DNA from: Paraspadella gotoi
Taxonomy: Eukaryota > Animalia > Chaetognatha
Reading direction: 5' to 3'
DNA length: 13,950 bases
Assembly (NCBI GenBank): GCA_051294375.1
Contig: JBJCIZ010001132.1
Coordinates: 1 to 13,950, forward strand
Both the position numbers and the translations under genes were made by a program. This document shows, piece after piece, positions 1 to 13,950 of the stretch. Each line of letters starts with the position of its first letter. Position 1 is the first letter of the stretch. The notes under the pieces are model-generated. The model ran no database searches and was not told the DNA's origin. It was given only the letters and a program-made list of their open reading frames with translations.

Positions 1-473
1 GCGGCGAACGCCATGCCGAAGACATTTCCAGGTAGAATACCTTGGGACAATTGTTCCTCTTGCTTTTCCCAAAGTTTCGCGACTTTTTTCTCTGGCGTGT
101 AATTCTTCCACGTTGTTCTAATCTTTCTCTGCTGTCCCTGCCTCTCGCGGAGCTCCGCGATCGTAATTCCATCCAGCTTCATCAACTCTTCATGCCATGA
201 GAACTGACGTGATTTATGCCGATCGGGGCCATTTGGGTCAACGTAATAAGTTTCATATCGAATACCATGAAATATTCTTTTTCCTTCGCTTTCGCTTCGC
301 AGCACGCCTGAGATGATGTTGAACAATTTATCAACAGCTGGCATGGTTTCGCAAACTCTCGCTCGTCTTTCGTCTGCGCTTTGGAGGAAACTCATCACAT
401 TCTGTTGCTTCTGTCTTTGCCGTTTCTCCTGATTCCCAAATCGTTCCTGTGTGTTCGATCGTCTTTTAGACAT
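1..473 (-). CDS. Uncharacterised ORF of at least 157 aa, running off the window edge; candidate third ORF of the Gypsy element, or a host exon
   Basis: Manual translation from ATG at 473 (in-frame TAA two codons upstream) is open to the window end: MSKRRSNTQERFGNQEKRQRQKQQNVMSFLQSADERRARVCETMPAVDKLFNIISGVLRSESEGKRIFHGIRYETYYVDPNGPDRHKSRQFSWHEELMKLDGITIAELRERQGQQRKIRTTWKNYTPEKKVAKLWEKQEEQLSQGILPGNVFGMAFA. It is GC-richer than the flanking AT-rich spacer. It is probably absent from the ORF track because it has no stop inside the window. Confidence 0.7.
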   Translation of the reverse strand, partial: MSKRRSNTQERFGNQEKRQRQKQQNVMSFLQSADERRARVCETMPAVDKLFNIISGVLRSESEGKRIFHGIRYETYYVDPNGPDRHKSRQFSWHEELMKLDGITIAELRERQGQQRKIRTTWKNYTPEKKVAKLWEKQEEQLSQGILPGNVFGMAFA

Positions 474-555
474 TCTTTAAGCTTGTTGGACGGCGAAACC
501 GATTATCAGGATCGTTGCGGATCGGCAGAGGTGGCCTCCACTCGAAACGCGATTC

Positions 556-591
556 CTGAAAAGGGATGGATGAAAAATGAAAACGAATTAG
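556..591 (-). promoter_or_regulatory. 3' splice acceptor (branch point, polypyrimidine tract, TTTTCAG|G)
   Basis: Minus strand reads CTAAT (591-587) tcgttttcatttttcatccatccc TTTTCAG|G. The exon would begin at 555, 82 nt upstream of the ATG at 473. Confidence 0.6.
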
Positions 592-770
592 CAATGACAG
601 GGTGCAATATTTGGTTTTTTTTTCTTCATATAAACTAAATAAAACTTGATGCTAGGCAATGTTGTAATTCATAATAAAAAAAAATTTATATATAAAATAA
701 AAAATAGAAAAAAAAAGAAATGAAATCCCCGGGGAAGACAAAGATAGATTTTTTTTTTGTTTTGTGTTTT

Positions 771-772
<2 letters not shown>

Positions 773-807
<35 letters not shown>

Positions 808-817
808 TAATTTTATT
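773..817 (-). promoter_or_regulatory. AATAAA overlapping the pol stop codon, followed by an A29 tract
   Basis: Minus strand GAA TAA A gives AATAAA at 817-812. After 10 nt comes a 29-nt A run (T run at 773-801 on +). Confidence 0.45.
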
Positions 818-1756
818 CAACATCACTATCTTCTAATTTTGAAAAATCAATTCTTTTGACGGTTCGTCGCCCTACTACCGTATTTTCTTTTAAACCTGGC
901 CTATTATAGGATTGCAGTCTTCTCATTTCTCTGCTTGTGTGTGACCCTGGTTGAATGTCACGAGGAGATCGTGTTAAAGGAAATGATTTTTGGCCTCGTC
1001 CTCGTCCTTTTCCCGTGATTAGCGGAGATCTTGATCTATTGCGTCTTCTTATGGTAGTAGGAGATCGTGTCCAAGGGGTTTCTGGATCGGAATTGGTGGC
1101 TGCTTCTGTCTGCTCATCCTCCGATCGGTGACCAAGTTCTTCTGATGTATAAATGATGATATTTTCTAAAATATTGGGAATGCTTTCTAATGGCGATTTG
1201 CTTGCGCTTTTGTCTAAATCTTCTAGGCTTTCTTTCTTTTCATGTTCCTCTTCATTAGATTCTTCTTTTCTTTTCGTATGTTCCGCTATAATATCGCTTT
1301 CCATGCTATCTTCATCTGAATCATAGATAAATTTCATCCATTCTTCCTCATTCTGAGAGGCCGGCGTTTCTGTAAAACACTCGGCTTCCTTCAACCACAT
1401 TTTCATATTTCGTGGTAAACATTGTTCTGCGTCTTCTTCTCTCATAACTTCGAGTGTTGTGGTTTGGATTTCTGTACTATTTTTCGTGTTTTGTAGTTCA
1501 TTGGGGGTTATTGGAGTTTGGAAACGTTTCAGGTCAGACCCTGGTTTTACTTCCTCTCCTTCTTGATTCTTGATCACATAAACGTTACCTTCTTTACCTT
1601 CTTCTGGATTCAAGCGTTTTTTAATTGTGTATGGTCCATCATAGTGGATGCTTAATTTGGTACGGTTTTCACGTGGTAGATGTTTAAGGACTTTGTCTCC
1701 TGGTTGAAACTGTTCTTCTTCTTTTCCTTTTTGGTGTTGTTTTATCATTTGTGCAT
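813..1756 (-). pseudogene. pol: Pol C-terminal part: post-integrase GPY/F region plus a long acidic then Arg/Ser-rich tail, separated from the rest of pol by the insertion
   Basis: FQPGDKVL...KLSIHYDGPYTI is the typical Gypsy integrase C-terminal GPY/F module (GPY at 1629-1637). The first ~17 aa of track ORF 813..1805 come from the inserted TIR. Confidence 0.9.
1749..1756. repeat. Left target-site duplication TTGTGCAT
   Basis: Identical to 4017-4024 and directly abuts the TIR start TAGG. Confidence 0.92.
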
Positions 1757-1920
1757 TAGGCCTCCCAAAAATATCCCACTTTGGAAAAGTTGTTGGTTCT
1801 TGCAAAGTTTCTCATTCCAATTTTATTGATAAAAACGAATATCACAATGAAAAATTTCTCAGGAAGAGAATTATGGACTTTCCACGCCACTTTATGTGGC
1901 GTACCACTTCCGGTTAAAAA
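1757..1920 (+). repeat. Left terminal inverted repeat (~165 bp)
   Basis: Aligns to the reverse complement of 3852-4016. Shared blocks: GCAAAGTTTCTCATTCCAA, AAAACGAATATCAC, AAAAATTTCTC, TATGGACTTTCC, CGCCACTTT, ACCACTTCCGGTT. About 78% identity by hand alignment. Confidence 0.92.
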
Positions 1921-2229
1921 ATAACTTGTTTTTAGGAATAAAACGATTTTAAACTTAAATTATTTATTTTATGGTTAATTATACACAGCTGAATGATTAT
2001 TTTACTTTTTATGAATTATAATTTAAATGTAAATTTTTAAAAATATTAAATATTTTTATCAATATTACCTCGAAATAAAAAAGACAGGAAATAATCATAT
2101 TTTTGAAAGATTTTTCAAATACTATTCTTTTAAATTAACAATTATTTTACTATTATATTTTATAAATATGTGTTTAATATTTTTTTATTAGTTAACTGAT
2201 CCATAATGACATTAATAAGAACAATTGTG

Positions 2230-2446
2230 AATAAGGCGATAAGTGGGCTGAAGACTGCATTCAGTAACTTCTATGCCCCCTCAGCAGCCACAGTCCTGGG
2301 CTTGGAACCAGGCTTGAGGGTTTTCCACGCCTCCATAGTGGTCTACGGTCGTCCTCTTGCTTCCCACAGGGTCGTTACCAAGTTGAGATTGAACCCGGTA
2401 CCTAGTGGTCATGAGCTGATGGCTTTACTCAATGAGCAACCGGGTC
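2230..2446 (-). mobile_element. tRNA-derived SINE-like sequence inside the TIR element
   Basis: Minus-strand head GACCCGGTTGCTCATTGAGTAAAGCCATCAGCTCATGACCACTAGGTACCGGGTTCAATCTCAACTTGG has an A-box-like motif (TTGCTCATTGAG, 2439-2428) and a B-box-like motif (GGTTCAATCTC, 2395-2385) at tRNA spacing. It resembles eukaryotic tRNA-Lys/Met and is followed by a ~140-nt GC-rich body. The 3' end is approximate. Confidence 0.65.
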
Positions 2447-2950
2447 ACGACTGAAGGTGTTATGATTATTGGCAGGGTGGATTTAGGCCATGCCCGACTA
2501 CACAATTATTAACAATAATTAAAATATTTTGATTAAAAATAAAGTGCAAAATACAAAATAATCTTTGAAGAAGTAAAAATAAATTTAAAAAATAGAAAGT
2601 TTGTATCTTTTCCTTTCTTTTCATTTTTATTATTAATATTAGAGTTCAATGAAAATAAAAATCTCTACAACTGTAACTCTAATAAAAATATAATGATGAA
2701 AGATGGATAGATGCCTTAACTCACCATAGCCAGTCCAAAACGGCAAGACAGCTATTTTTTAAATGAATAATTTATAATGTTTGTATTGCATTGTCACCAA
2801 AAATTGCGAGCGGACGTCGCAATAAATGATTATAGAGAATCGATGCTTCCTAGACAACTAATTCTTGTGCTAACTCAGCACTAAAACTCTCGGTTACGTA
2901 GATATAGCGCCGAGGAAACGAGGCCACCGGATCTAAGGCCCAATGACGAT

Positions 2951-3159
2951 TGTAACGTCTCACAGCAGACCTGAGGTCCAGACGAGAGAGAAATGCTCAG
3001 ACTACAAGGTCATGTAGCAAGTATAAAGTAATTGTACTACTGACTGTATTAGAAGTCTGGGCAAAATAAATATATTCTGGCAACTTGAGTAAACCTCGGT
3101 TATCAAAGAATCCTTTCACCGAACTACAGTCAAGCCTCAGTCGTCTTCGTTTCCTTACA
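2951..3159 (+). mobile_element. LTR-like fragment (TGTAA...TTACA)
   Basis: Inverted TGTAA/TTACA ends, TATAAA at 3022 and AATAAA at 3065, in the order expected in an LTR. No TSD was found, and the left edge could lie further upstream (~2790). Confidence 0.35.
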
Positions 3160-3520
3160 TTGTAAAGTTTCTCTCATTCGAATTTCAAGCATAATATCAA
3201 CTGAAGGTTTAAAGGTAACTTTGAGGACACCGATATTACTAATAAAATTAATGACATAATATAGATTATTAAATTATGCTAAACTCGTTTCTTTTTCCCC
3301 CTATCGTTTGAATTATCTTATTTAAAAAATATGGGTGCATATAATTTTTTTATTACCATCATAATTTGTGAGAAGCACAATTTAATTTATTCCAAAGTTT
3401 TACCCAAATTTTTTGCGAGACTGTTTCTCTCCCTCAATTTTATCCCTCCTTTCACTGGATTTGAAAGCCTTTAAATCTTGAAATAAAATTTTTTTAGCAT
3501 AATTTTACTTTCGCAAAGCT

Positions 3521-3590
3521 GGGTTTAGGGGAGGTTTAGGGTTATGGGTGGTTTATGAGTGGTTATGGTTAAGACGGTTTAAGGTTAAGG
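3521..3590 (+). repeat. Degenerate telomere-like GGTT(T)AG/GGTTA repeats
   Basis: gggtttaggggaggtttagggttatgggtggtttatgagtggttatggttaagacggtttaaggttaagg. Confidence 0.6.
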
Positions 3591-3851
3591 TAATTTTTTT
3601 AAAAGTAGATTTTTAAGTGGTTTTTCCAAAGGCCAAAACATCAGTTAGTAAAAGTTTTTACCCATAATTTTGTCAAAAGCCAGCATTTTATAATATAAAG
3701 CCTTTTTTAATTGTTATCCTTTGACATACAAAATGTAATTTATAAAGCAAAACCAAATAATTAGGTATTAAGTTTATAAGTAACTGTATTTTGATTAATT
3801 ACTAAGTGTGCTGGCTCAATAATTGCTTGCTTCTTTTAAAAATTCTTATCT

Positions 3852-4016
3852 TTTTTCAACCGGAAGTGGTTTGCGCAAAAAGTGGCGCGGAAAGTCCATA
3901 TAGCGCATCCGGAGAAATTTTTAATGGTGATATTCGTTTTCTCCACCTAATTTGGAATGAGAAACTTTGCGAGAATCAAGAACTTTAAAAAAAGTTTGAT
4001 ATTCCTGGGAGATCTA
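3852..4016 (-). repeat. Right terminal inverted repeat (~165 bp)
   Basis: Reverse complement aligns to 1757-1920. Confidence 0.92.
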
Positions 4017-4024
4017 TTGTGCAT
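4017..4024. repeat. Right target-site duplication TTGTGCAT
   Basis: Identical to 1749-1756. Confidence 0.92.
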
Positions 4025-7000
4025 GGTATTTTGTCTTGTTGTTGTGCTCTCATTTCATGCATTTTTTGAACTTTTTCTGTAACTTCTTTCATATATATTT
4101 TCATATTTGGTTTCAATCCTTTTATTTCTGTTGATGTGGTCTGTAATTGGTTCTTTAGTGGAAATCTTGGGTCCCTTCCGAACATTAAAGCATGTGGGAG
4201 TATCCGGTACTGGGATGTGGGTATTGAATTGTATGTGAATTCCACCCAAGGTAAAAACCTGTAGAAACCATACGGTGGGTCCCAAATTGGTGTGTTCTTT
4301 TTGCTAATTCTTCGATGATAGTTCGGTTTTTTCTTTCACATTGGCCTTGTTTTTGAGGATGGTATGCCATTGAGAACTCTTTTCTAGTTTCATACAACTT
4401 GCATAGCGCTTCTATGAGCCTGTTCCTGAATTCTGGTCCATTATCTGATCCCCATACGATTGGAAATCCAAATCTTGTAACATATTTTTCTAATTTGCGA
4501 GCGACTGTTGTGGATTCGGCTCCAACTAAAGGATATAAGACACAATATCTTGTGAATCGATCCTCGATGACTAAGATGTGATCAAATCCATCAGAAGGAG
4601 TTCCTACTTGTAGTAAATCCGTAATGACATATTCCATGGGGAATGACGCCTTCTGAGGTATCACAGGTATGACTTTAGAATTTGAAGGTCTCATCGCTTG
4701 ACATTCGAAACAAGTTTTGACAAAGTTTCGAAGATCTTTTCCCATTCCAGGCCAGACGCAGAATGATTCTAATCGACTGCGTGCTCGTTTTTCCGCAGGA
4801 TGGCCGCTCTGATAATCACCATGTGCTTTTGTTAGTATTTTGTGTCGCAAATCTTTAGGTATTACTAGTCGTAATTGTTTTTCACCATTCACTTCACGGC
4901 AATGGTATAATGCTCCATCAATTATACAAAGCTCAGAGCTAAGTTTCTTGTACCAACTTTGAATATCCAGGTTTTTGAGCGCATTTGAAGGATCATCTGG
5001 ATTTTCTTTTAGAGTTTTAAGTACCATACCAATGTCTGGGTCTTTCTTTTGCATTTCAACCACTTCCTTCAAGTGTTGATCATCAGTAATAGTGATAGCT
5101 AGGGGCACTTCGGCGTTGCAGACTGCTCCCAATATAATGGCATCTTCTTGTGAAGTCGCCGTTGGGGGGTCAGCATGCGGGGCGCGTGAAAGTGCGTCGG
5201 CATCCGAATGCGTTTTCCCTGCTTTATGTTTTATTTGAAATTCATAAGTTGATAGTTCTAATGCCCATCTTGTGCGTTTGCCTGTCGCATCTTTCTTTCC
5301 GTCCACGTTCAGGCATGTGAGCAATGGTTTGTGATCAGTGTAAATTGTAAAGGGCTTGAATTTTAGGTAATGAGAGAATTGACGGATTGCCCAAATGATT
5401 CCGTACATTTCTTTATCATAAGGTGCCCATGCTTTCTCTGCGTTATTAAGCTTTTGGCTTGCAGCTGCCACCATCACTTCTTTTCCCTTGTCATCTTTTT
5501 GAGTAAGTACAGCACCTACGGTGGNNNNNNNNNNGTCTGGTTTGACAAAGAATTCTTTTTCAAAGTCTGGGTAGGCTGTCGCTGTTCCAGCGAGTAGTTC
5601 TGTCTTCAATGTGTCAAAGGACTTTTGTTTTTCATTATCCCAGTTGAAGTCAATTCCTTTCTTTAATAAGTCGGTGAGCGGTTCTGCTATTTTAGCGAAA
5701 TTCACAATATGATTTCGGTAGTAATTAGCTAAGCCGACAAAGCCGCGAACCTGTTTGACATCTGTAGGTGNNNNNNNNNNNNNNNTCTTTTGAAGATTCC
5801 GATCATCTGGTTTTATGCCATTGGCGTCGAGCTGGAAGCCGAGTACTGAAACGGAGCTTTGAGCGAACTTACACTTTCCTGGGTGTAGTTTCAGTCCTGC
5901 ACGCTTTAAAGCATCAAAAACCTTTTCAAGCATTTGTAAGTGGGATTCTGTATCTGTAGTCGCAACTAGAATGTCGTCCAAATATGCCAGTACACACTCG
6001 ATGGGCAGACCTCGAAATACCAATTCTACCAATGATTGCATGGAGGCAGATCCATTCTTTGCTCCCATGGGTACGCGTATATATTCCAAATGGCGAGCTC
6101 CATCGGAAAATGCAAAGTATTTTCTTTGGCTTTCCAAGATTGGAATTTGATGGTATCCTTTAATGAGATCTACACTTGTGAATACTGTTGGATTTTTAAG
6201 TCTTTTTAGGCTGTCATGGATATTTGGTAAAGGGAAATGTGCTTTCTCAGTGACTTTGTTTAAACGGCGAAAATCTGTGCAATACCGCCAACTCCCGTCT
6301 TTCTTTTTGACTAAGACGATGGGCGCATTGTATGGACTTTCCGATTCGCGTGCACATTTGTTGGCAATCAGTTTATTTGTCTCCTTGTTTATCTGTTCTT
6401 GCACTTCAGGTGGAGGATTTCGATAAATAGGAGCGACGACCGGCTTGTCTGTGGTAAGCTTTATTTGGTGATACATTAAATTTGTTCTTCCTAAATCGCT
6501 TTCGTTCTTCGCAAAGACGGCGTCGTATTTCTCACATAGTTTTTTAAATCTTGCTCTTTGTTCTTCATTGAAAATGTTGTCGGAAGTATTAACCCTGAAT
6601 AAATCGTCTGACACGGGTTTTTCTTCATTTTCTTCAGGTATCAATCCAGGCATTTCCTCTTCGTCTTCTGTTGTTTTCTCCACTGCTGCTATCAATATTT
6701 CTTCGGTGGCGTCGCTTTCTTCTTTTGTCATATTTCCGATTGGATGGGCTTCGTCTTCAGGCTCTTCATCCACATTTTCTATTATTACTTCATTAGTTGT
6801 ATGTTTATTTTGAATAGTTTCGCCTTCATTTTGTTTTCCATTGGCCGNNNNNNNNNNAGTTTCTCTTATTTCAGGATTGATTGTATCAATTACGGCCAGT
6901 GGGATGTCTTTACCGATATTAATGCTGGAAGGCCAGGCATTGAATACTTCAATTGTGATGATTTCTTGTCGGGGATCCACAATTGTGTGCCCCGCGATTT

Positions 7001-7637
7001 GCGGCATGTCTTTGACATACTCGCTGGAGAGCGGACGAGCGTAAACAGCTGCTGGCACTTCTTTTGTGGAGTTAGTCAATTTTGGCCCTGATATGTACGC
7101 TTTTACTAAGCATCGAGAGTTTGGGGGTAATGTTACGGCTTCGAAAGATGCTAGGTGTGGCGGTGGAAGGTCGGTGGGTGGTGGTGGTCGAGATAGTGGT
7201 AAACTGAAGCCATCGATTTTCATCACATCTAAATTCATGTCTAGGATTGCTCCTCGTTTGCGAAGGAAGTGTATTCCAAGGATTATTGGATGTAGTAGGT
7301 TATGGATTATCAAAAATTCTTCCTTGTAAGTTTTATTTGGTTCTCCAAGACTAAACTCAATTTGTGCTACACCTATGGGCGTCACTGGGCATTTGTTTAT
7401 GCCAATGCAAGCATTTAATTTTCTTTTGATTACTTTAACTTTATTTGGTGGTAATATGGATAAAATCTCCGCATCAATGCAGTTGCCTCCTGATGCTCCT
7501 GTATCAATAAGTGTATTAATGGTAGTATTTTCTATTTTACAATTAATTGTACAGCGACAGTCTTTTGTTCCGGGTCCAGGGTCATTGTGTTTTCCAGCAA
7601 TGTCGCCCTGCTGGACATTACTGGTCACTGAAAACCC
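4017..7637 (-). CDS. pol: Pol polyprotein: aspartic protease, dUTPase-like segment, reverse transcriptase, RNase H, integrase; frameshifted near the 3' end
   Basis: PR: LIDTGA (DTGA at 7494-7505). RT: PYNAPIVLVKKKDGSWRYCTDFRRLN and YLDD (5973-5984). RNase H: PDxxxxTVGAVL, DKEMYGIIWAI, YTDHKPL, ADALSR. IN: HHCC (AHGDYQSGH...CFEC) and DDE (ITDLL, SDNGPEF, QCERKN). It continues through indels at ~4195-4285 into [11 protein letters not shown]. Confidence 0.97.
5525..6857. other. Three short N gaps (5525-5534, 5771-5785, 6848-6857) within pol
   Basis: All three preserve the pol frame. The RNase H gap matches the canonical D-A-S-x-x-x-V-G-A-V-L spacing, so these are probably size-accurate masked bases. 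Confidence 0.9.
7577..7637 (-). promoter_or_regulatory. Programmed -1 ribosomal frameshift signal (slippery heptamer plus H-type pseudoknot)
   Basis: The gag frame ACG GGU UUU CAG UGA contains G_GGU_UUU (7637-7631). The -1 frame reads GGG UUU UCA GUG ACC, which is the pol frame. Spacer CAGUGA; stem 1 CCAGUAAUGUC/GACAUUGCUGG (11 bp, one G-U); loop CAGGG pairs with downstream CCCUG (7581-7577); 12-nt A-rich loop 3. Confidence 0.85.
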
Positions 7638-9042
7638 GTGTAATCGTATATCCCGTGTGGGTTTACGTCATAGCCTAGTTGTTCTAAACCTGACTCTATG
7701 GCGTATGGAGCCCAATTTTGATTGACATCATAAGTTGCTTGATTTTGGTCAGTTATGGGATGCGTGAAAGTGTTGGCCTGGGTGTTGTCGCCAATTGCTG
7801 CCGTTTCTGCTGTACTTTGGAACCAAGTTTCAGATGAGGGATTGGATGTGGCTTGTGATTGCTGGTTTTGGTTTCCTTTTTGTATTGAAGCCTGATCCCA
7901 GTTTTGTGATGGCTGGTATCGCAAGATACGTGGTCTTATGGGTCCATGAGAGACATATCCAGGGTTGCCATGAATTAATCCGCGCACTATTCTTGGTTGA
8001 CCGCGGTATGGGTATCTTTGATATCCTATGTTGGGTCTGGGCCATCGGTTGGCAGCTTGGATGTATGATGGTATGTTGCCTGAGGCTATCTCCTTGAGTT
8101 GATCTTGTATGCTATTCATGGTATGACAGACTTCATCGACTTTGGATTCCATTCTCGCTGCTTGATCTTCTGATTTATCCCTTGATGCCAACAATTCTTG
8201 AATTCCCAATTCGTTGATTTTGATTCTGCTGTCCATATCTTTCATTTGAGTTTGAATTTGGTTCCATTCTGGGGAGATCGTTCTTTGATTACCTTGCATT
8301 GTAGAGGCCAGGGTTGGGGCCTGTGTTGGCGGGTTGTGCATTTTTTTGGTGGAAATTGCACCCATGTGGAAAGGAGGTTTAGTCGCGATTTCATTTTGGT
8401 CTTGAACAGATTCCCAATCCACTGCGTACATAAATGCATCTTCCAATGTTTCCCGTTCGCGTTTGCAGTAAAATCTGAGTTTTTTCTTTAATTCTTCGTT
8501 TTCCAAACCTTCAATGAAGCGTAGTACGGCCTGCCTTTCGAATTCTTCCCTAATTTCTCCAAGGCGTGGTTGATAAGTGTTGAGAAGGCGAACGAGTTCA
8601 TCTCTATATTCACGTAGAGTTTTATTGCCCCTTTTGAATGAATCTGGTTGGGGCAAAAAACCGTAGTTTTTCCGCTTCATTCTCAAATGCACTTGTAAAT
8701 GTTTCATCAAGTAATTCCCAACTGTCTTTGATTGATTGAGGCAGATTTTGATACGTTGTCAGCGCGTGTCCTGGTTCCAACTTTGTTGGGATCCAGTAAC
8801 AACATTCTCGATCTATACGTTCGTCCTCATCGTGACTCAAACGAGAGTGGCGCGCACGTTTTCTCTAAAAAATACTTTGTACGTGGACCAAAGATCTTTG
8901 CTGTGAAATTTTTGCATGGAATTCCTTTTGGACGCGGAGATGAGCGATTCCTCGACTGTAAGGTCAGTTGTTGAGAGTTCTGGCAATCAAGGCCATGATC
9001 TTCACCTCCACCTGCTCCTTCGTCAGCTTCGTCTCCGTGCAT
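7625..9042 (-). pseudogene. gag: Gag, split by about three frameshifts (~8905, ~8840, ~8650)
   Basis: Track ORFs 8827..9042, 8622..8840 and 7625..8710 plus an intervening frame (SKDLWSTYKVFFRENVRATL) join into a capsid-like protein: ALTTYQNLP...SWELLDETFTSAF...TLREYRDEL...RFIEGL...TLEDA. It lies directly upstream of pol. Confidence 0.85.
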
Positions 9043-9470
9043 TGTTTAAAATTTGATAAATTGCGAGAATTTGATTAAAAAGAATTTAAATATATTTTTG
9101 CAATATATATGCTACATAAGTCGTAAGTGTAAATAAAATATATAGATAAAAAAAATAAAAACATAAAATTTGGAGGTTGGTAAGGTAGGTAGGTAGGTAA
9201 AATGAATTAAAATTGAATTAAGGGTCCTCCCGAAAATAAGTGGAAATACTAAGGTAGTACCAATAAGTAAGAGAGAAATAAAATTTTTTTAAAAAATATT
9301 TAAAATTATTTGGAATAAAACCCCTTATACGTCGATTTGCACTCCATTGCAAGTGAATGTGATTTAAGTGTAATGCTGTATGAGTTTGGCAAATTATTCT
9401 TATTTAAACGAAGCAAATGAAAGGTTTACAATTCTTATTGGGTTGGTGTGACGCTGGGTCTAACTTTGAA

Positions 9471-9488
9471 CCCGCGTTGGGGCGGCGA
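9471..9488 (-). promoter_or_regulatory. Putative degenerate primer-binding site, tRNA-Lys(CUU)-like
   Basis: Minus strand TCGCCGCCCCAACGCGGG resembles the Lys-type PBS TGGCGCCCAACGTGGGG. It sits ~430 nt upstream of the gag ATG, where a PBS is expected, but lacks the canonical TGG start. Confidence 0.45.
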
Positions 9489-10425
9489 TTAACTACTTGC
9501 ATAATAAATTAGCGTGCTCATTCGTTAACCTCATGAAAACACAATTTATTATCCGCTACACTGCAATGTACCAAACGTCACTTATTTCATTTTAACCTGT
9601 GGCTTTTTTTTCAAGCGTCAGAGCGCAATTTCTAATCGCCTTAAACTGCCACAGTATACGGCCTATCCAATCCAACAAATGATTTTATATTTAGATTTCC
9701 GAAACTCACTTTTTTTTGTGCCTTCTTTGAATTTCCGAGTTCTTATTTGAATTTCCGAGTTCTTATTCAGGGATGTACCTTGATCACGGCGTACGATGCA
9801 CCAAGCTGTTAGGACCCGCCGGTCCGTCCTCCTCCTAAAACGCCCCCGAGAATATTGAAGAATATTGAGGAAACTCCTCAACCCCGGCGAGATGCTTCGG
9901 TAGTCCAGAGACTTCAAAAAGCATGATTTGTGGCGTTGAGCAGATCGACGATCAAATAGTCTCTTTATTTCTCTGAGTTTATGAAGAGTTTAAAAAGGGT
10001 ACCTTAATAAAATAATCCAAGCATATAGATATTCAAACAGTACACAAAATAATATCAAAAATCATTATTTAAACATTTAAAAGAATTACAATGTATTATA
10101 TAAAGAAAACGTAATGATTCAGAACGCAATGAATAATACTGAAAAAATACTGAATTTCGACAAAAATAACTGAATCCCGACGATGACGAATGTAGAGAAA
10201 AGATCATAAATAAACGGTAAATCCTTGTGACGACGTAATAAAGTTTAAACACAGATATCACGATTTGTGAGTCTTTGGATCTAACAAATATAAAATGGAG
10301 CGATTGTTTGTGGTCAATTTTTGAAAAGGTACAAAATGAGAGAATGATTAAAGCTAATTAATGGTATTACTAAATAATAGAAGCGCTTTTTAAAAAAAAG
10401 CGTTACAAAGGATTTGAAGTTAACA
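9489..10425 (-). mobile_element. Possible 5' LTR
   Basis: Adjacent to the PBS-like site. On the minus strand it starts TGTTAACTTC (10425) and ends GTAGTTAA (9489), an imperfect inverted pair, with AATAAA at 9550-9545. There is no second copy in the window to confirm it. Confidence 0.25.
9726..9767. repeat. Perfect 20-bp tandem duplication
   Basis: TTTGAATTTCCGAGTTCTTA x2, plus TT. Confidence 0.9.
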
Positions 10426-10562
10426 TTTTACATTTTACTATTTTACCATCTTATTGTTCTTGTTGTTTGAAAGAATATTTTAACCAAATAACATGTAGTT
10501 TGATTAGTCCAATTAGCTTTTTTAATTGATGAAGCAGAACGTTCTAGTCGTTCCTTCTTAAG

Positions 10563-10722
10563 CTTCTTTTTTATCCTCCCCTCTCCCTCTTTTCTTTCTC
10601 TCCCTCTCTCTTCTCTCGTCCTCTCTTCTTCTCTCTCCCTCTCTTCTTCTCTCTCCCTCTCTACTTCTCTCTCCTAAATTGACGATCAATGGCAACAATG
10701 GCCTCTCTCTCTTTCTCTCTCT

Positions 10723-10766
<44 letters not shown>

Positions 10767-10874
10767 GACGATGACTGGATGTTTTATGTCACTTCCCAAA
10801 TTTTCTTGACCGAAAGAGAGAGAGAGATGTAGAGAAGAGAGAGAGGAGAGAGAGAGAGAGAGAGAGAGAGGAGA
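10563..10874. repeat. CT-rich then GA-rich microsatellite tracts
   Basis: (CT)n and CTCTT variants at 10563-10765; (GA)n at 10815-10874. Confidence 0.9.
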
Positions 10875-11034
10875 TATTACGCGGGGCCATATCCTTGCAG
10901 TTTAAACTGTTAAACTTCGCGCAGTTTCGGGGAAGAGAACTATAAGTTCACCGCAACTACGCCCTGCGGCGGCCTCGCCGGGATATCATCCCGGCAAATC
11001 CCCGCCCCAATTCATGACGGGACGAGAAATGCCC

Positions 11035-11040
11035 ACTCTC

Positions 11041-11073
<33 letters not shown>

Positions 11074-11106
11074 TCTTTCACTCTCTTTCTGTTTATCTTT
11101 GTCTCT
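11035..11106. repeat. (CT)n microsatellite
   Basis: Direct reading of the sequence. Confidence 0.9.
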
Positions 11107-11419
11107 CAAAATTTTCCTTATTTTAAATATATTTTTTAATTACTACAGAAATACATTAATGACAGAAAAAGTAGAAAAAAGAAAGACAAAAAGAAAAATA
11201 TGAAAAAAATGAAAAATAATAAAGAAAGAAGGAAAAAAAGAAAGAAAATTACTAATTATTAATTAATTGATAATTGTTATTATTGATTAGTTGGTTATTC
11301 TGTTTGTTTTTATTTTAATTTAATTTAGTTATTATATTTTTTTAAAAAGATAATTAAAAAAAACATAGAATATAGTTTTATTTTATATTTTAATTCAGCA
11401 GATTTAAAATCAATTACAT

Positions 11420-11446
11420 GTATCAATCGTATCAATCGTATCAATC
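11420..11446. repeat. 9-bp tandem repeat x3
   Basis: GTATCAATC x3. Confidence 0.9.
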
Positions 11447-11928
11447 AGACAATTATCATTTAAAAGGGAAAAAGAGAAAGAGAGAGTGAGAGAAAGTAAG
11501 AAAAAATAAAAATAAAATAAAAAATTGACGAAAGAAGAGAGAGAAAGAGACGATTTTGATGTCCGCGGATCAATTTTGCTCTTTCTATGGTTTTTCCGGC
11601 TATGGGTCTATTGTTCTCTTCCGTCCGCGGCTCAGGTCGCGGACCTACTCGAAACCTGACCCCGACGGGTCATTTCTCTTCTCTTCTCTTCTCTTTCTCT
11701 CTCGCAGCGGCATCCGGGTTTCGATGATCAGAGTCCGTGGAAGTCGCGGATCGAGACTCACTCTTCTGCTCTTTCCTTAATAAATCATTTTTTAAAGAAA
11801 AAAATGAAAAATAAAAATTTTATTTTTTTTATTTAAAAATGTTCACAGGTGTTCGTGGTCGTTCGTCGATCTACATATTCGAATTTTTGATTCCACTTGA
11901 TTTTATATTTTTGCTATGCTTCAAGTAA

Positions 11929-12214
11929 CAGAGAGAGAGAAAAGAAAGTGAGAGAGAGATATGAATAGAAAAAAATTAAATATTTATTAAATGAACAGAT
12001 AATTTTTTTATATTGGTTGTACCAATTTCATAGAGTGAGAAAGAGATAGAAATAGAGATACAAAGATGAGAGAAAGAGAGACTGAGACAGAGCAGAGAAA
12101 GATATATATGAAAATAAAAAAAAGAGAGAGAGGTAGAAAGAGAGAGAGAGAGTAAGAGAGAAAGTAAGAGAAGAGCTAAAAATAGAAAAAGAAATAGAGA
12201 GAGATAGAGATAGA

Positions 12215-12246
<32 letters not shown>

Positions 12247-12300
12247 TGAAAATAGAAAAAGAAAAGATAAAGGTAGACAGAGAGAGAGAGAGATAAAATA
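11929..12300. repeat. GA-rich low-complexity/microsatellite region
   Basis: Degenerate (GA)n and GAAA tracts, with a short AT-rich interruption. Confidence 0.85.
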
Positions 12301-12432
12301 AAATAGAGGGTTTAGGAATGAATCTAAATGCAAATAAATACTATTTATAATGACATCGCAGGAGAATCATTAAAAATATTTTTATAACAAGGACTCCCAT
12401 GATGAACAGATCTAGTGATTTGTGGCGGGGAT

Positions 12433-12543
12433 AGGGCTTCAAACGTTAATCCCCATCAAAAATATTGGCGGGGATTCCCCGCCATGGATAAGGCAGAGGG
12501 CTTCAAACAGTGATCCCCGTAAAAAATAGTGGCGGGGATTCCC
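12433..12543 (+). repeat. Two 47-bp direct repeats (12433-12479, 12497-12543) containing TGGCGGGGAT motifs
   Basis: AGGGCTTCAAACgttaATCCCCatcAAAAATAtTGGCGGGGATTCCC versus AGGGCTTCAAACagtgATCCCCgtaAAAAATAgTGGCGGGGATTCCC; 41 of 47 positions identical. Confidence 0.85.
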
Positions 12544-13435
12544 AAAACAGAGGAAAAAAAGACAGTTTTCGTGAACAGAAAGAGGGCGCAGTTCAAACTG
12601 TCCCTTATAGGCAGTTCAACTGCGCCTTATTGGACGGCGTCAATACTTGAAGAGAGAGAGAAAGATAGAGATAAGTAAAAAGAGATTTAATAGAAAGAGT
12701 AAAGAGTCTCTTGCATCAACTGCCCGCGCCGTCTTCGTCTCTGCGCCGACTCCTTTCGTTCTTCATATTTTCAACTCGGATTCACGACAAATTCTGACGT
12801 CGCTGATCAAAACTGAAGACAAACTCAACCGCTACCAAAAATCGTCGAGTGTATCTTCTGCTAACTTAATTCACGATTTAATTCATCATTTATTCAACAG
12901 TTTACGTCATTTGAGATTTAGTTCAACCTTCGTCGACAAATCAAACGAGCGACGATCAAGGCATAGAAATAATAAACAATTTCAAATTATTACAAAAAAC
13001 CTTTAAACTATTGAGTCAAACATTCAGATAAGTCTTTAAGTGAAAAAAGATTGACTCTTTTATGGAGATTCAGAGCAAGGAGGCGATAGCAAAGTTACTC
13101 CTCATATTTTTGATGAAGGAGAAAAAAATCTTGATTCTTAAATATTAAATGGGAAATCCGTAATATAATTCATTCCATTTTTTTATCTGAAATTTACAAT
13201 TTTTAAATGAGAGAAAGTGAAGAATATCTCGCCTTGTCTTCTCCTTCTATCACTTAAGTACAAATTTCTCTCTATACGTCAATTTTTGCTGAGGTTGAAT
13301 CAATGTTACTAAGAACGGTTTCTGTTTTCATTCGTTTTTATCACCGAATCACAATCGGTCCGTCTGTTGAAACGTTATTTCTATGAGTTTCTAAAACGTT
13401 AGTTTCCGCGTGTGAGAACGAAAAATTCTTCTTCA

Positions 13436-13485
13436 GAGAGAGACTAGAGAAAGATAAGAGAGAGAGAGAAGAGAGAGCAGAGGAG
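13436..13485. repeat. GA-rich microsatellite
   Basis: Degenerate (GA)n. Confidence 0.75.
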
Positions 13486-13950
13486 GCAAAAATAAGCAAA
13501 AGAAGATAAGTCGCTCAGGCTCTATTTTTTTTTCTCGGCTTATTTTTCTTTGATATTGTTCATAAATCTTAATGTATTTGCATTAAATACATTAAAATTT
13601 CCAAATTACTGTAAAGCTGAAGAAAAACTTTTAATAAGAAAAAAATAAACCAAGAACGTAAAAGTTGTGATGGTTCACGTGACCAATTTACACGCAATCA
13701 CAGGATCGCACTTGATAATGTTTTTTTAAAAAAATGTAAAATCTTGCAGTAGATTCCTGAGATATTTTTTTGGAAATGTTTATTTGTGATATCAAAATAA
13801 AACTTACATTAGTAATAGGAATCACCGACACGGCACATATTGGTAAATCTCTATATCATATGATCCGCCCTAATGCTACAATAAAGCGAAGAAAAAAATA
13901 TTAAATCAAGTAAAATCAAACTCGAATAGCTAGATCGATATTCTCTCTTT

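Follow-up and report, generated by a model that had tools for sequence, protein, structure and literature searches.

The window analyzed here, that is, the whole stretch of 13,950 nucleotides, comes from Paraspadella gotoi (Chaetognatha; GCA_051294375.1, contig JBJCIZ010001132.1, positions 1 to 13,950, forward strand). Its minus strand carries gag and pol regions of a Ty3/gypsy-type element and, past pol, a third open reading frame (ORF3) that is still open at the window edge. Features are given below in the 5' to 3' direction of the minus strand.

9807..10286, minus strand: candidate 5' LTR of 480 nt with TGTTAG...CTAACA ends, a TATA-like motif at 10102, and AATAAA at 9969
9794..9803, minus strand: primer-binding-site-like motif starting TGG, 3 nt past the LTR end, from sequence
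9779..9810, minus strand: 3' end of the leader exon (exon 1), with the donor AAG/GT at 9779/9778, from junction contigs
556..9778, minus strand: GT-AG intron of 9,223 nt that spans gag and pol, from junction contigs
7625..9042, minus strand: gag region, split over several frames in the window
4030..7667, minus strand: pol (PR-RT-RH-IN) of Ty3/gypsy type, from Pfam and PDB sequence matches
1757..4016, strand not assigned: non-coding insertion of 2,260 nt inside the integrase that has terminal inverted repeats and is flanked by an 8-bp target duplication
813..1756, minus strand: 3' end of pol, with a GPY motif followed by an acidic and Arg/Ser-rich tail; stop at 815-813
556..591, minus strand: acceptor AG preceded by a pyrimidine tract and a branch-point-like CTAAT, used in the junction contigs
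474..555, minus strand: untranslated start of exon 2, without an ATG before 473
1..473, minus strand: N-terminal 157 codons of ORF3, a predicted DEDDy (WRN/Nibbler-type) 3'-5' exonuclease of ~1,000 aa, with the frame open at the window edge

The candidate LTR has 6-nt inverted ends; its boundaries are set by motifs, with no second copy in the window. Together with the TGG motif, which we take to resemble the 3' end of tRNA-Gly, it appears to represent the 5' LTR and primer site of the element. Matches to tRNA or Rfam were absent throughout the window. Within the gag region, Retrotrans_gag reached an E value of 0.04 on the piece at 8625-8864 (Pfam; below the curated cut-off), and a scan of 7625..9042, in a window that carries frame errors, detected no CCHC knuckle.

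The pol region matched RVT_1 (1.8e-29), RT_RNaseH (3.6e-29), Integrase_H2C2 (4.4e-15), and rve (5e-9) in Pfam, and its best PDB match was the Ty3 Gag-Pol (3.9e-80). The PR-RT-RH-IN order and the Ty3-like RT assign it to the Ty3/gypsy type, with a protease match that is weak (E 0.05-0.15 in Pfam). No dUTPase was matched by Pfam in this frame-error-bearing window; the protease is separated from RT by an unassigned stretch at 7000-7330, also without a Pfam match, where rotifer elements carry a dUTPase and a degenerate dUTPase may lie. The C-terminal end of the integrase (813-1500) is acidic over a long stretch and then turns basic, in a tail rich in Arg, Ser, and Gly, and Pfam gave no chromodomain match there. 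In minus-strand direction, an A-rich run of 35 nt (767-801) closely follows the pol stop, and contigs break at this run.

ORF3 starts at ATG 473, 340 nt past the pol stop (815-813) on the same strand. A preliminary description of this DNA had reported the 157-codon frame at this distance, the acceptor signals in front of it, the lack of an LTR between pol and ORF3, a basic N terminus, and the absence of a signal peptide or transmembrane (TM) segment in the visible part of the protein, and all of these features were recovered. Base shuffling gave a stop-free run of at least 157 codons in 18 of 2000 trials on positions 1-555 and in 5 of 2000 on positions 1-812. The CTAAT starts at 591, and TTTTCAG/G sets the exon start at 555. 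The AG of this acceptor (557-556) is the best of three YAG candidates between pol and ORF3, with 17 pyrimidines of 20 in its tract versus 11 and 12 for the other two (between 812 and 474). The candidate 5' LTR has no copy between pol and ORF3, the best chance match within 1-812 being 14 nt. ORF3 begins with a basic N terminus in translation, which may serve as an NLS, and its maximum 19-residue Kyte-Doolittle hydropathy within the window is 1.07, with no signal-peptide-like hydrophobic stretch.

A spliced form joining the leader to ORF3

Errantiviruses (Drosophila gypsy-type) express env from a spliced subgenomic RNA, and for such a message a donor close behind the LTR end is expected. The preliminary description had proposed that ORF3 is a third gene expressed by cis-splicing or trans-splicing, which junction reads at 555 could reveal. 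Of eleven public sequencing runs listed, none of them recorded as RNA, nine contain this stretch; we aligned contigs from six of these nine and compared them with the window. Contigs in three of the six runs (X6, X7, and X8) join 9779 to 555, with the element's own leader as the upstream sequence. These represent two independent data sets, since the X7 and X8 contigs are identical and were counted as one. The contigs leave the window match at 557 with 83, 27, and 27 further letters, respectively, and the loose ends agree with 9781-9810 in all but one of 30 letters (next best place, 13 mismatches; rough chance of such a match, 4e-10). For X6, 30 of the 83 loose letters were compared, and the upstream 27 letters of X7/X8 fall under the advised 31; X6 is the stronger witness to the junction.

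The donor at 9779/9778 is the only AG/GTR site in 9050-9806 and lies 28 nt past the LTR end. The contigs from these three runs describe a splice with GT-AG ends between the leader and the acceptor past pol, the pattern of a subgenomic message, and cis-splicing over a 9.2-kb intron is seen directly. Because the upstream letters come from the leader of the element itself, trans-splicing is unnecessary and was rejected. In X1 and X5, contigs cross the acceptor without splicing and reach 601 and 614, respectively, and the X9 contig starts at 512, past the junction. We infer that the joined contigs are RNA because the intron is uncovered in them; if they were DNA copies, the loss of exactly a GT-AG intron would likewise indicate a spliced RNA. 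Each of the five ATGs that lie upstream, in the LTR and leader, has its frame closed by a stop, and ATG 473 is the first after the join. One letter shared by the junction contigs, in the spacer between the LTR and the primer site, differs from the window; the spliced form may therefore derive from another copy. The contig depth of ORF3 was similar to that of pol in X1 and X5 and higher in X6 and X7, values that are not informative on copy number or expression.

The same runs bear on the reading frame. All six differ from the window in length near 324, 299, and 254, with zero substitutions. Ten similar gaps occur in 4030-4400, where the runs show the same small gaps with 0 to 2 substitutions; therefore, the three gaps in ORF3 look like assembly errors. 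Assembly errors may account for all of the gag, pol, and ORF3 frameshifts, and the element family may be young. The window translation of approximately codons 50-74 is probably off frame, and the first catalytic motif is therefore hidden.

ORF3 relatives and their predicted fold

Window ORF3 had no match in the word-based protein search (near and longer lengths) or in Atlas, and Pfam returned one row at E 0.054 and no exonuclease. An HMG box among PDB sequences (E 0.9) was rejected as a match. Exhaustive phmmer with window ORF3 gave nine hits, none of which had an exonuclease match in Pfam. Seven of these form one family that aligns from the N terminus (26-37% identity; E 1e-8 to 8e-4); P0006 and P0010, repeat proteins with short matches, were dropped. 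The full-length relatives are unnamed proteins of 970-1031 aa, and the start Met of one of them, P0004, aligns to ATG 473. All eight of the relatives' clusters that were looked up were ENA-only, without NCBI or UniRef members, and a search of viral and metagenome contigs with ORF3, the relatives' alignment, and RT as queries gave no confirmed locus with a relative beside pol. Pfam matches to MUT7-C or a helicase were absent among the relatives. Sequence matches to WRN were weak (E 0.03-0.2), and Atlas features led to PF01612 clusters at 0.92-0.93.

Five residues (D76, E78, D214, Y290, and D294 in P0004 numbering) are invariant in all five full-length relatives and make up the DEDDy pattern, in an exonuclease domain that is only 23-50% identical to that of P0004. 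Read with X at its three breaks, window ORF3 scored 115.7 bits against a profile built from the relatives only, up from 92.5 bits in the assembled frame, and the first-motif columns then held Asp and Glu; as assembled, it has Arg at the Asp column. The ExoI D-x-E is accordingly present in window ORF3 when read in this way, as it is in nine of ten alignment rows (the tenth is a fragment, and some rows are near-duplicates). ExoII D and ExoIII Y-x3-D are found in all five full-length relatives, at positions that for the present copy lie beyond the window. The present copy presumably shares these later motifs, going by relatives at <30% identity, and its product is probably an active 3'-5' exonuclease, as judged from those relatives.

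A fold search had also been proposed, and we ran it on models of two relatives, P0004 and P0005. The P0005 model (pLDDT 77; pTM 0.78) matched the WRN exonuclease in Foldseek (E 2.8e-5). In VIA, it matched WRN (Z 17.9; rmsd 2.3; 186 aligned) and the Nibbler EXO domain (Z 17.6; rmsd 3.0; 208 aligned). Against 48,161 chains, the P0004 model (pLDDT 57 overall) matched Nibbler (Z 19.1; rmsd 3.2; 204 aligned), WRN (Z 18.9; rmsd 2.6; 186 aligned), and RNase D (Z 18.0). The top rows are tied, and therefore the fold supports no choice of subfamily. Most of the best named matches in the viral library were 3'-5' exonucleases; Egalitarian and Exd1 were also among the fold matches, at Z 14-16. Thus, the models of both relatives have an RNase D/WRN-type fold, with WRN and Nibbler exonuclease domains as the matches.

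In the relatives, the EXO domain starts at approximately residue 30. In the models, the first catalytic strand is followed by a helical insert of ~75 residues, which is the best-conserved part of window ORF3. After it come an acidic linker that is disordered, a helical region, and, at the C terminus, an alpha/beta domain. The secondary-structure pattern of this last domain suggested a second exonuclease, now dead, an idea that was unsupported (profile comparison probability 0.07%; HMM E 0.009 at best); the fold searches left this domain out.

The maximum 19-residue hydropathy in the five full-length relatives was 1.18-1.45, and none of the five has a segment of TM strength. Together with the DEDDy exonuclease fold of the family, this agrees with the earlier suggestion of a soluble non-Env protein: the characters of an envelope protein, a signal peptide or TM anchor, are lacking by hydropathy, and a nuclease fold is predicted in the relatives. 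The X7 contig runs 2,490 nt past the window edge, which leaves room for ~988 codons from ATG 473, a predicted length that fits the family range. Two DNA-like contigs from different studies stop at the same position, 838 nt beyond the left edge of the window, and the X7/X8 contig continues. This break falls at about codon 438, in the relatives' predicted low-complexity linker, and could also reflect an intron or a repeat.

Alternative explanations and possible functions

Our main reading, to which we assign a probability of about 0.78, is that ORF3 is the third gene of a Ty3/gypsy element, expressed by splicing and encoding a soluble protein of ~1,000 residues with a predicted active DEDDy exonuclease domain. 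It builds on the joined form with its GT-AG ends, the lack of an LTR between pol and ORF3, the catalytic-residue homology, and the predicted fold. Under this reading, a promoter in the LTR would give rise to both genome-length RNA and, if the joined contigs are RNA, a spliced RNA that joins the leader to 555 and skips gag and pol in the manner of an env message. Translation of the spliced RNA would yield ORF3 alone, unfused to Gag-Pol, with the length and catalytic activity expected from its relatives, and a 3' LTR would close the element downstream of ORF3.

An improbable alternative is that ORF3 is a host exonuclease gene (mut-7/EXD-like) with a 3'-truncated Gypsy element upstream, whose LTR promoter and donor are spliced into a host exon. 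The window does end inside ORF3, with the 3' LTR and PPT out of view; both DNA-like contigs break at the same point, 838 nt left of the window; the relatives are known without genomic context; and the A-rich tract at 767-801 may reflect a truncation. However, the ATG follows the pol stop after only 340 nt, the donor is 28 nt away from the LTR end, as expected of a subgenomic message, and the break falls in the linker of the relatives, where copies may differ. In addition, the relatives, unnamed and ENA-only in eight of eight clusters, are unlike a conserved host gene, and their EXO-first order differs from the HEAT-like NTD followed by EXO that is described for Nibbler/MUT-7 (PMC11347159).

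It is still less probable that ORF3 is cargo with an exonuclease fold that binds nucleic acid uncut, as do proteins of the Maelstrom, EXD1, and Egalitarian type. Egalitarian and Exd1 are indeed among the fold matches (Z 14-16), and the second and third motifs of the present copy lie beyond the window. Against this, the five catalytic positions have stayed invariant in all five full-length relatives of a domain as divergent as 23-50% identity to P0004, and window ORF3, read with X at the breaks, retains the first motif. A divergent envelope or fusion protein with membrane segments past the window would suit the env-like position and splicing pattern, with at least about two thirds of the protein beyond the window, but is very improbable given the lack of a signal-peptide-like stretch in window ORF3, the low hydropathy of the five full-length relatives, and the nuclease fold modeled for their N-terminal domain.

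The third-gene reading has a precedent, which qualifies the preliminary description's view of the architecture: it is unusual for Gypsy, but the bdelloid rotifer elements Juno1/2 and Vesta2/5 also carry a DEDDy exonuclease ORF3, shared with Athena/Terminon (Rodriguez, Kenefick, Arkhipova 2017, PMC5408684). These elements have the Ty3/gypsy-type pol order, the exonuclease occupies the ORF3 slot without a TM domain, its activity is undemonstrated and its role unknown, and ORF3s are typically expressed via spliced messages (PMC5408684). The rotifer report describes a dUTPase between PR and RT and a CCHC motif in gag, neither of which was matched in the present window with its frame errors, and a DEED change in the rotifer ORF3, whereas the present relatives have the canonical D-E-D-Y-D (PMC5408684). 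The present ORF3 is probably a much longer protein than the published rotifer DEDDy ORF3s, with a helical insert; its family of ~1,000 aa is set apart by the ~75-residue insert, acidic linker, helical domain, and C-terminal alpha/beta domain. The splice junction is mapped here, and the accessible text of the rotifer report maps none (PMC5408684). In the open-access literature, the rotifer paper was the only primary report that we found of DEDDy ORF3s in LTR elements. With the present family, nuclease cargo would extend beyond rotifers to a large protein family that lacks annotation and is missed by Pfam.

Other systems share single aspects of this arrangement. Errantiviruses resemble it in the donor behind the 5' LTR and primer site, the acceptor after pol, and the sense-strand third ORF, and differ in the product, which is predicted here to be a soluble nuclease-fold protein and in errantiviruses is a baculovirus-F-derived glycoprotein (origin as given in PMC5408684). 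In place of the default assumption that ORF3 is env, the present analysis offers a splice junction with mapped ends and a predicted class of enzyme. Nibbler/MUT-7/EXD3 and WRN (PDB 7jw6, 7jw2, 2e6l, 2fbt) are the tied best fold matches (Z 17-19) with the DEDDy residues kept; they differ in that identity is 11-18%, the ORF3 relatives have a large helical insert, and these relatives lack a MUT7-C or helicase match in Pfam. The order of domains, with a HEAT-like NTD before EXO in Nibbler/MUT-7 (PMC11347159), also sets the EXO-first relatives apart from that family. Dada DNA transposons of Laccaria and Ectocarpus likewise carry a transposon-borne DEDDy exonuclease domain with all four catalytic residues (PMC3706591; see also the reviews PMC6431247 and PMC6338049). 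In Dada, the domain is internal to a DDE transposase, whereas ORF3 is a separate spliced retroelement gene (PMC3706591).

Why retroelements retain exonucleases is a question left open in the rotifer report (PMC5408684). We tentatively favor, at somewhat less than even odds, a role in trans on RNA 3' ends, in which ORF3 would trim or destroy small RNAs or silencing-triggering RNA by-products, because a separate message suits a host-directed role, Nibbler ties for the best fold match, and Nibbler and MUT-7 trim small RNAs (PMC11347159). The main alternative, that ORF3 trims the ends of the element's own RNA or cDNA, seems somewhat less likely, and other roles are conceivable. More doubtful again is the specific proposal that the Gypsy env slot holds a Nibbler/MUT-7-like enzyme of ~1,000 residues and reversed layout (active exonuclease, helical scaffold, and possibly a second, dead nuclease) with its own spliced message, which would trim or destroy piRNAs or siRNAs and so suppress small-RNA silencing. 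If true, a silencing suppressor would have been made from the silencing pathway's own enzyme type, and an anti-piRNA factor would be a counter-defense gene of an animal LTR retrotransposon. We found no report in the open-access literature of a retrotransposon-encoded Nibbler-type exonuclease with piRNA. The separate gene, conserved catalytic residues, and natural relatives make the choice of substrate (small RNA, element RNA, or cDNA) testable.

Repeats within and around the element

The insertion in the integrase (1757..4016) has inverted ends of ~160 nt that are 80% alike, and its longest stop-free frame is 84 codons. From the length of its target duplication, we take it to be hAT-like. It is repeated in the runs and missing from other pol copies. 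All four runs compared contain the empty site, and uninterrupted copies or alleles of pol therefore exist. Nested in the insertion at 2293-2480 is a short repeat, SINE- or MITE-like, with a summed contig depth of >100,000 in two runs and no tRNA or Rfam match. Upstream of the element, the flank at 10560-12300 is dense in (GA)n/(CT)n microsatellites, and a direct repeat pair of 52 nt lies at 12428-12543.
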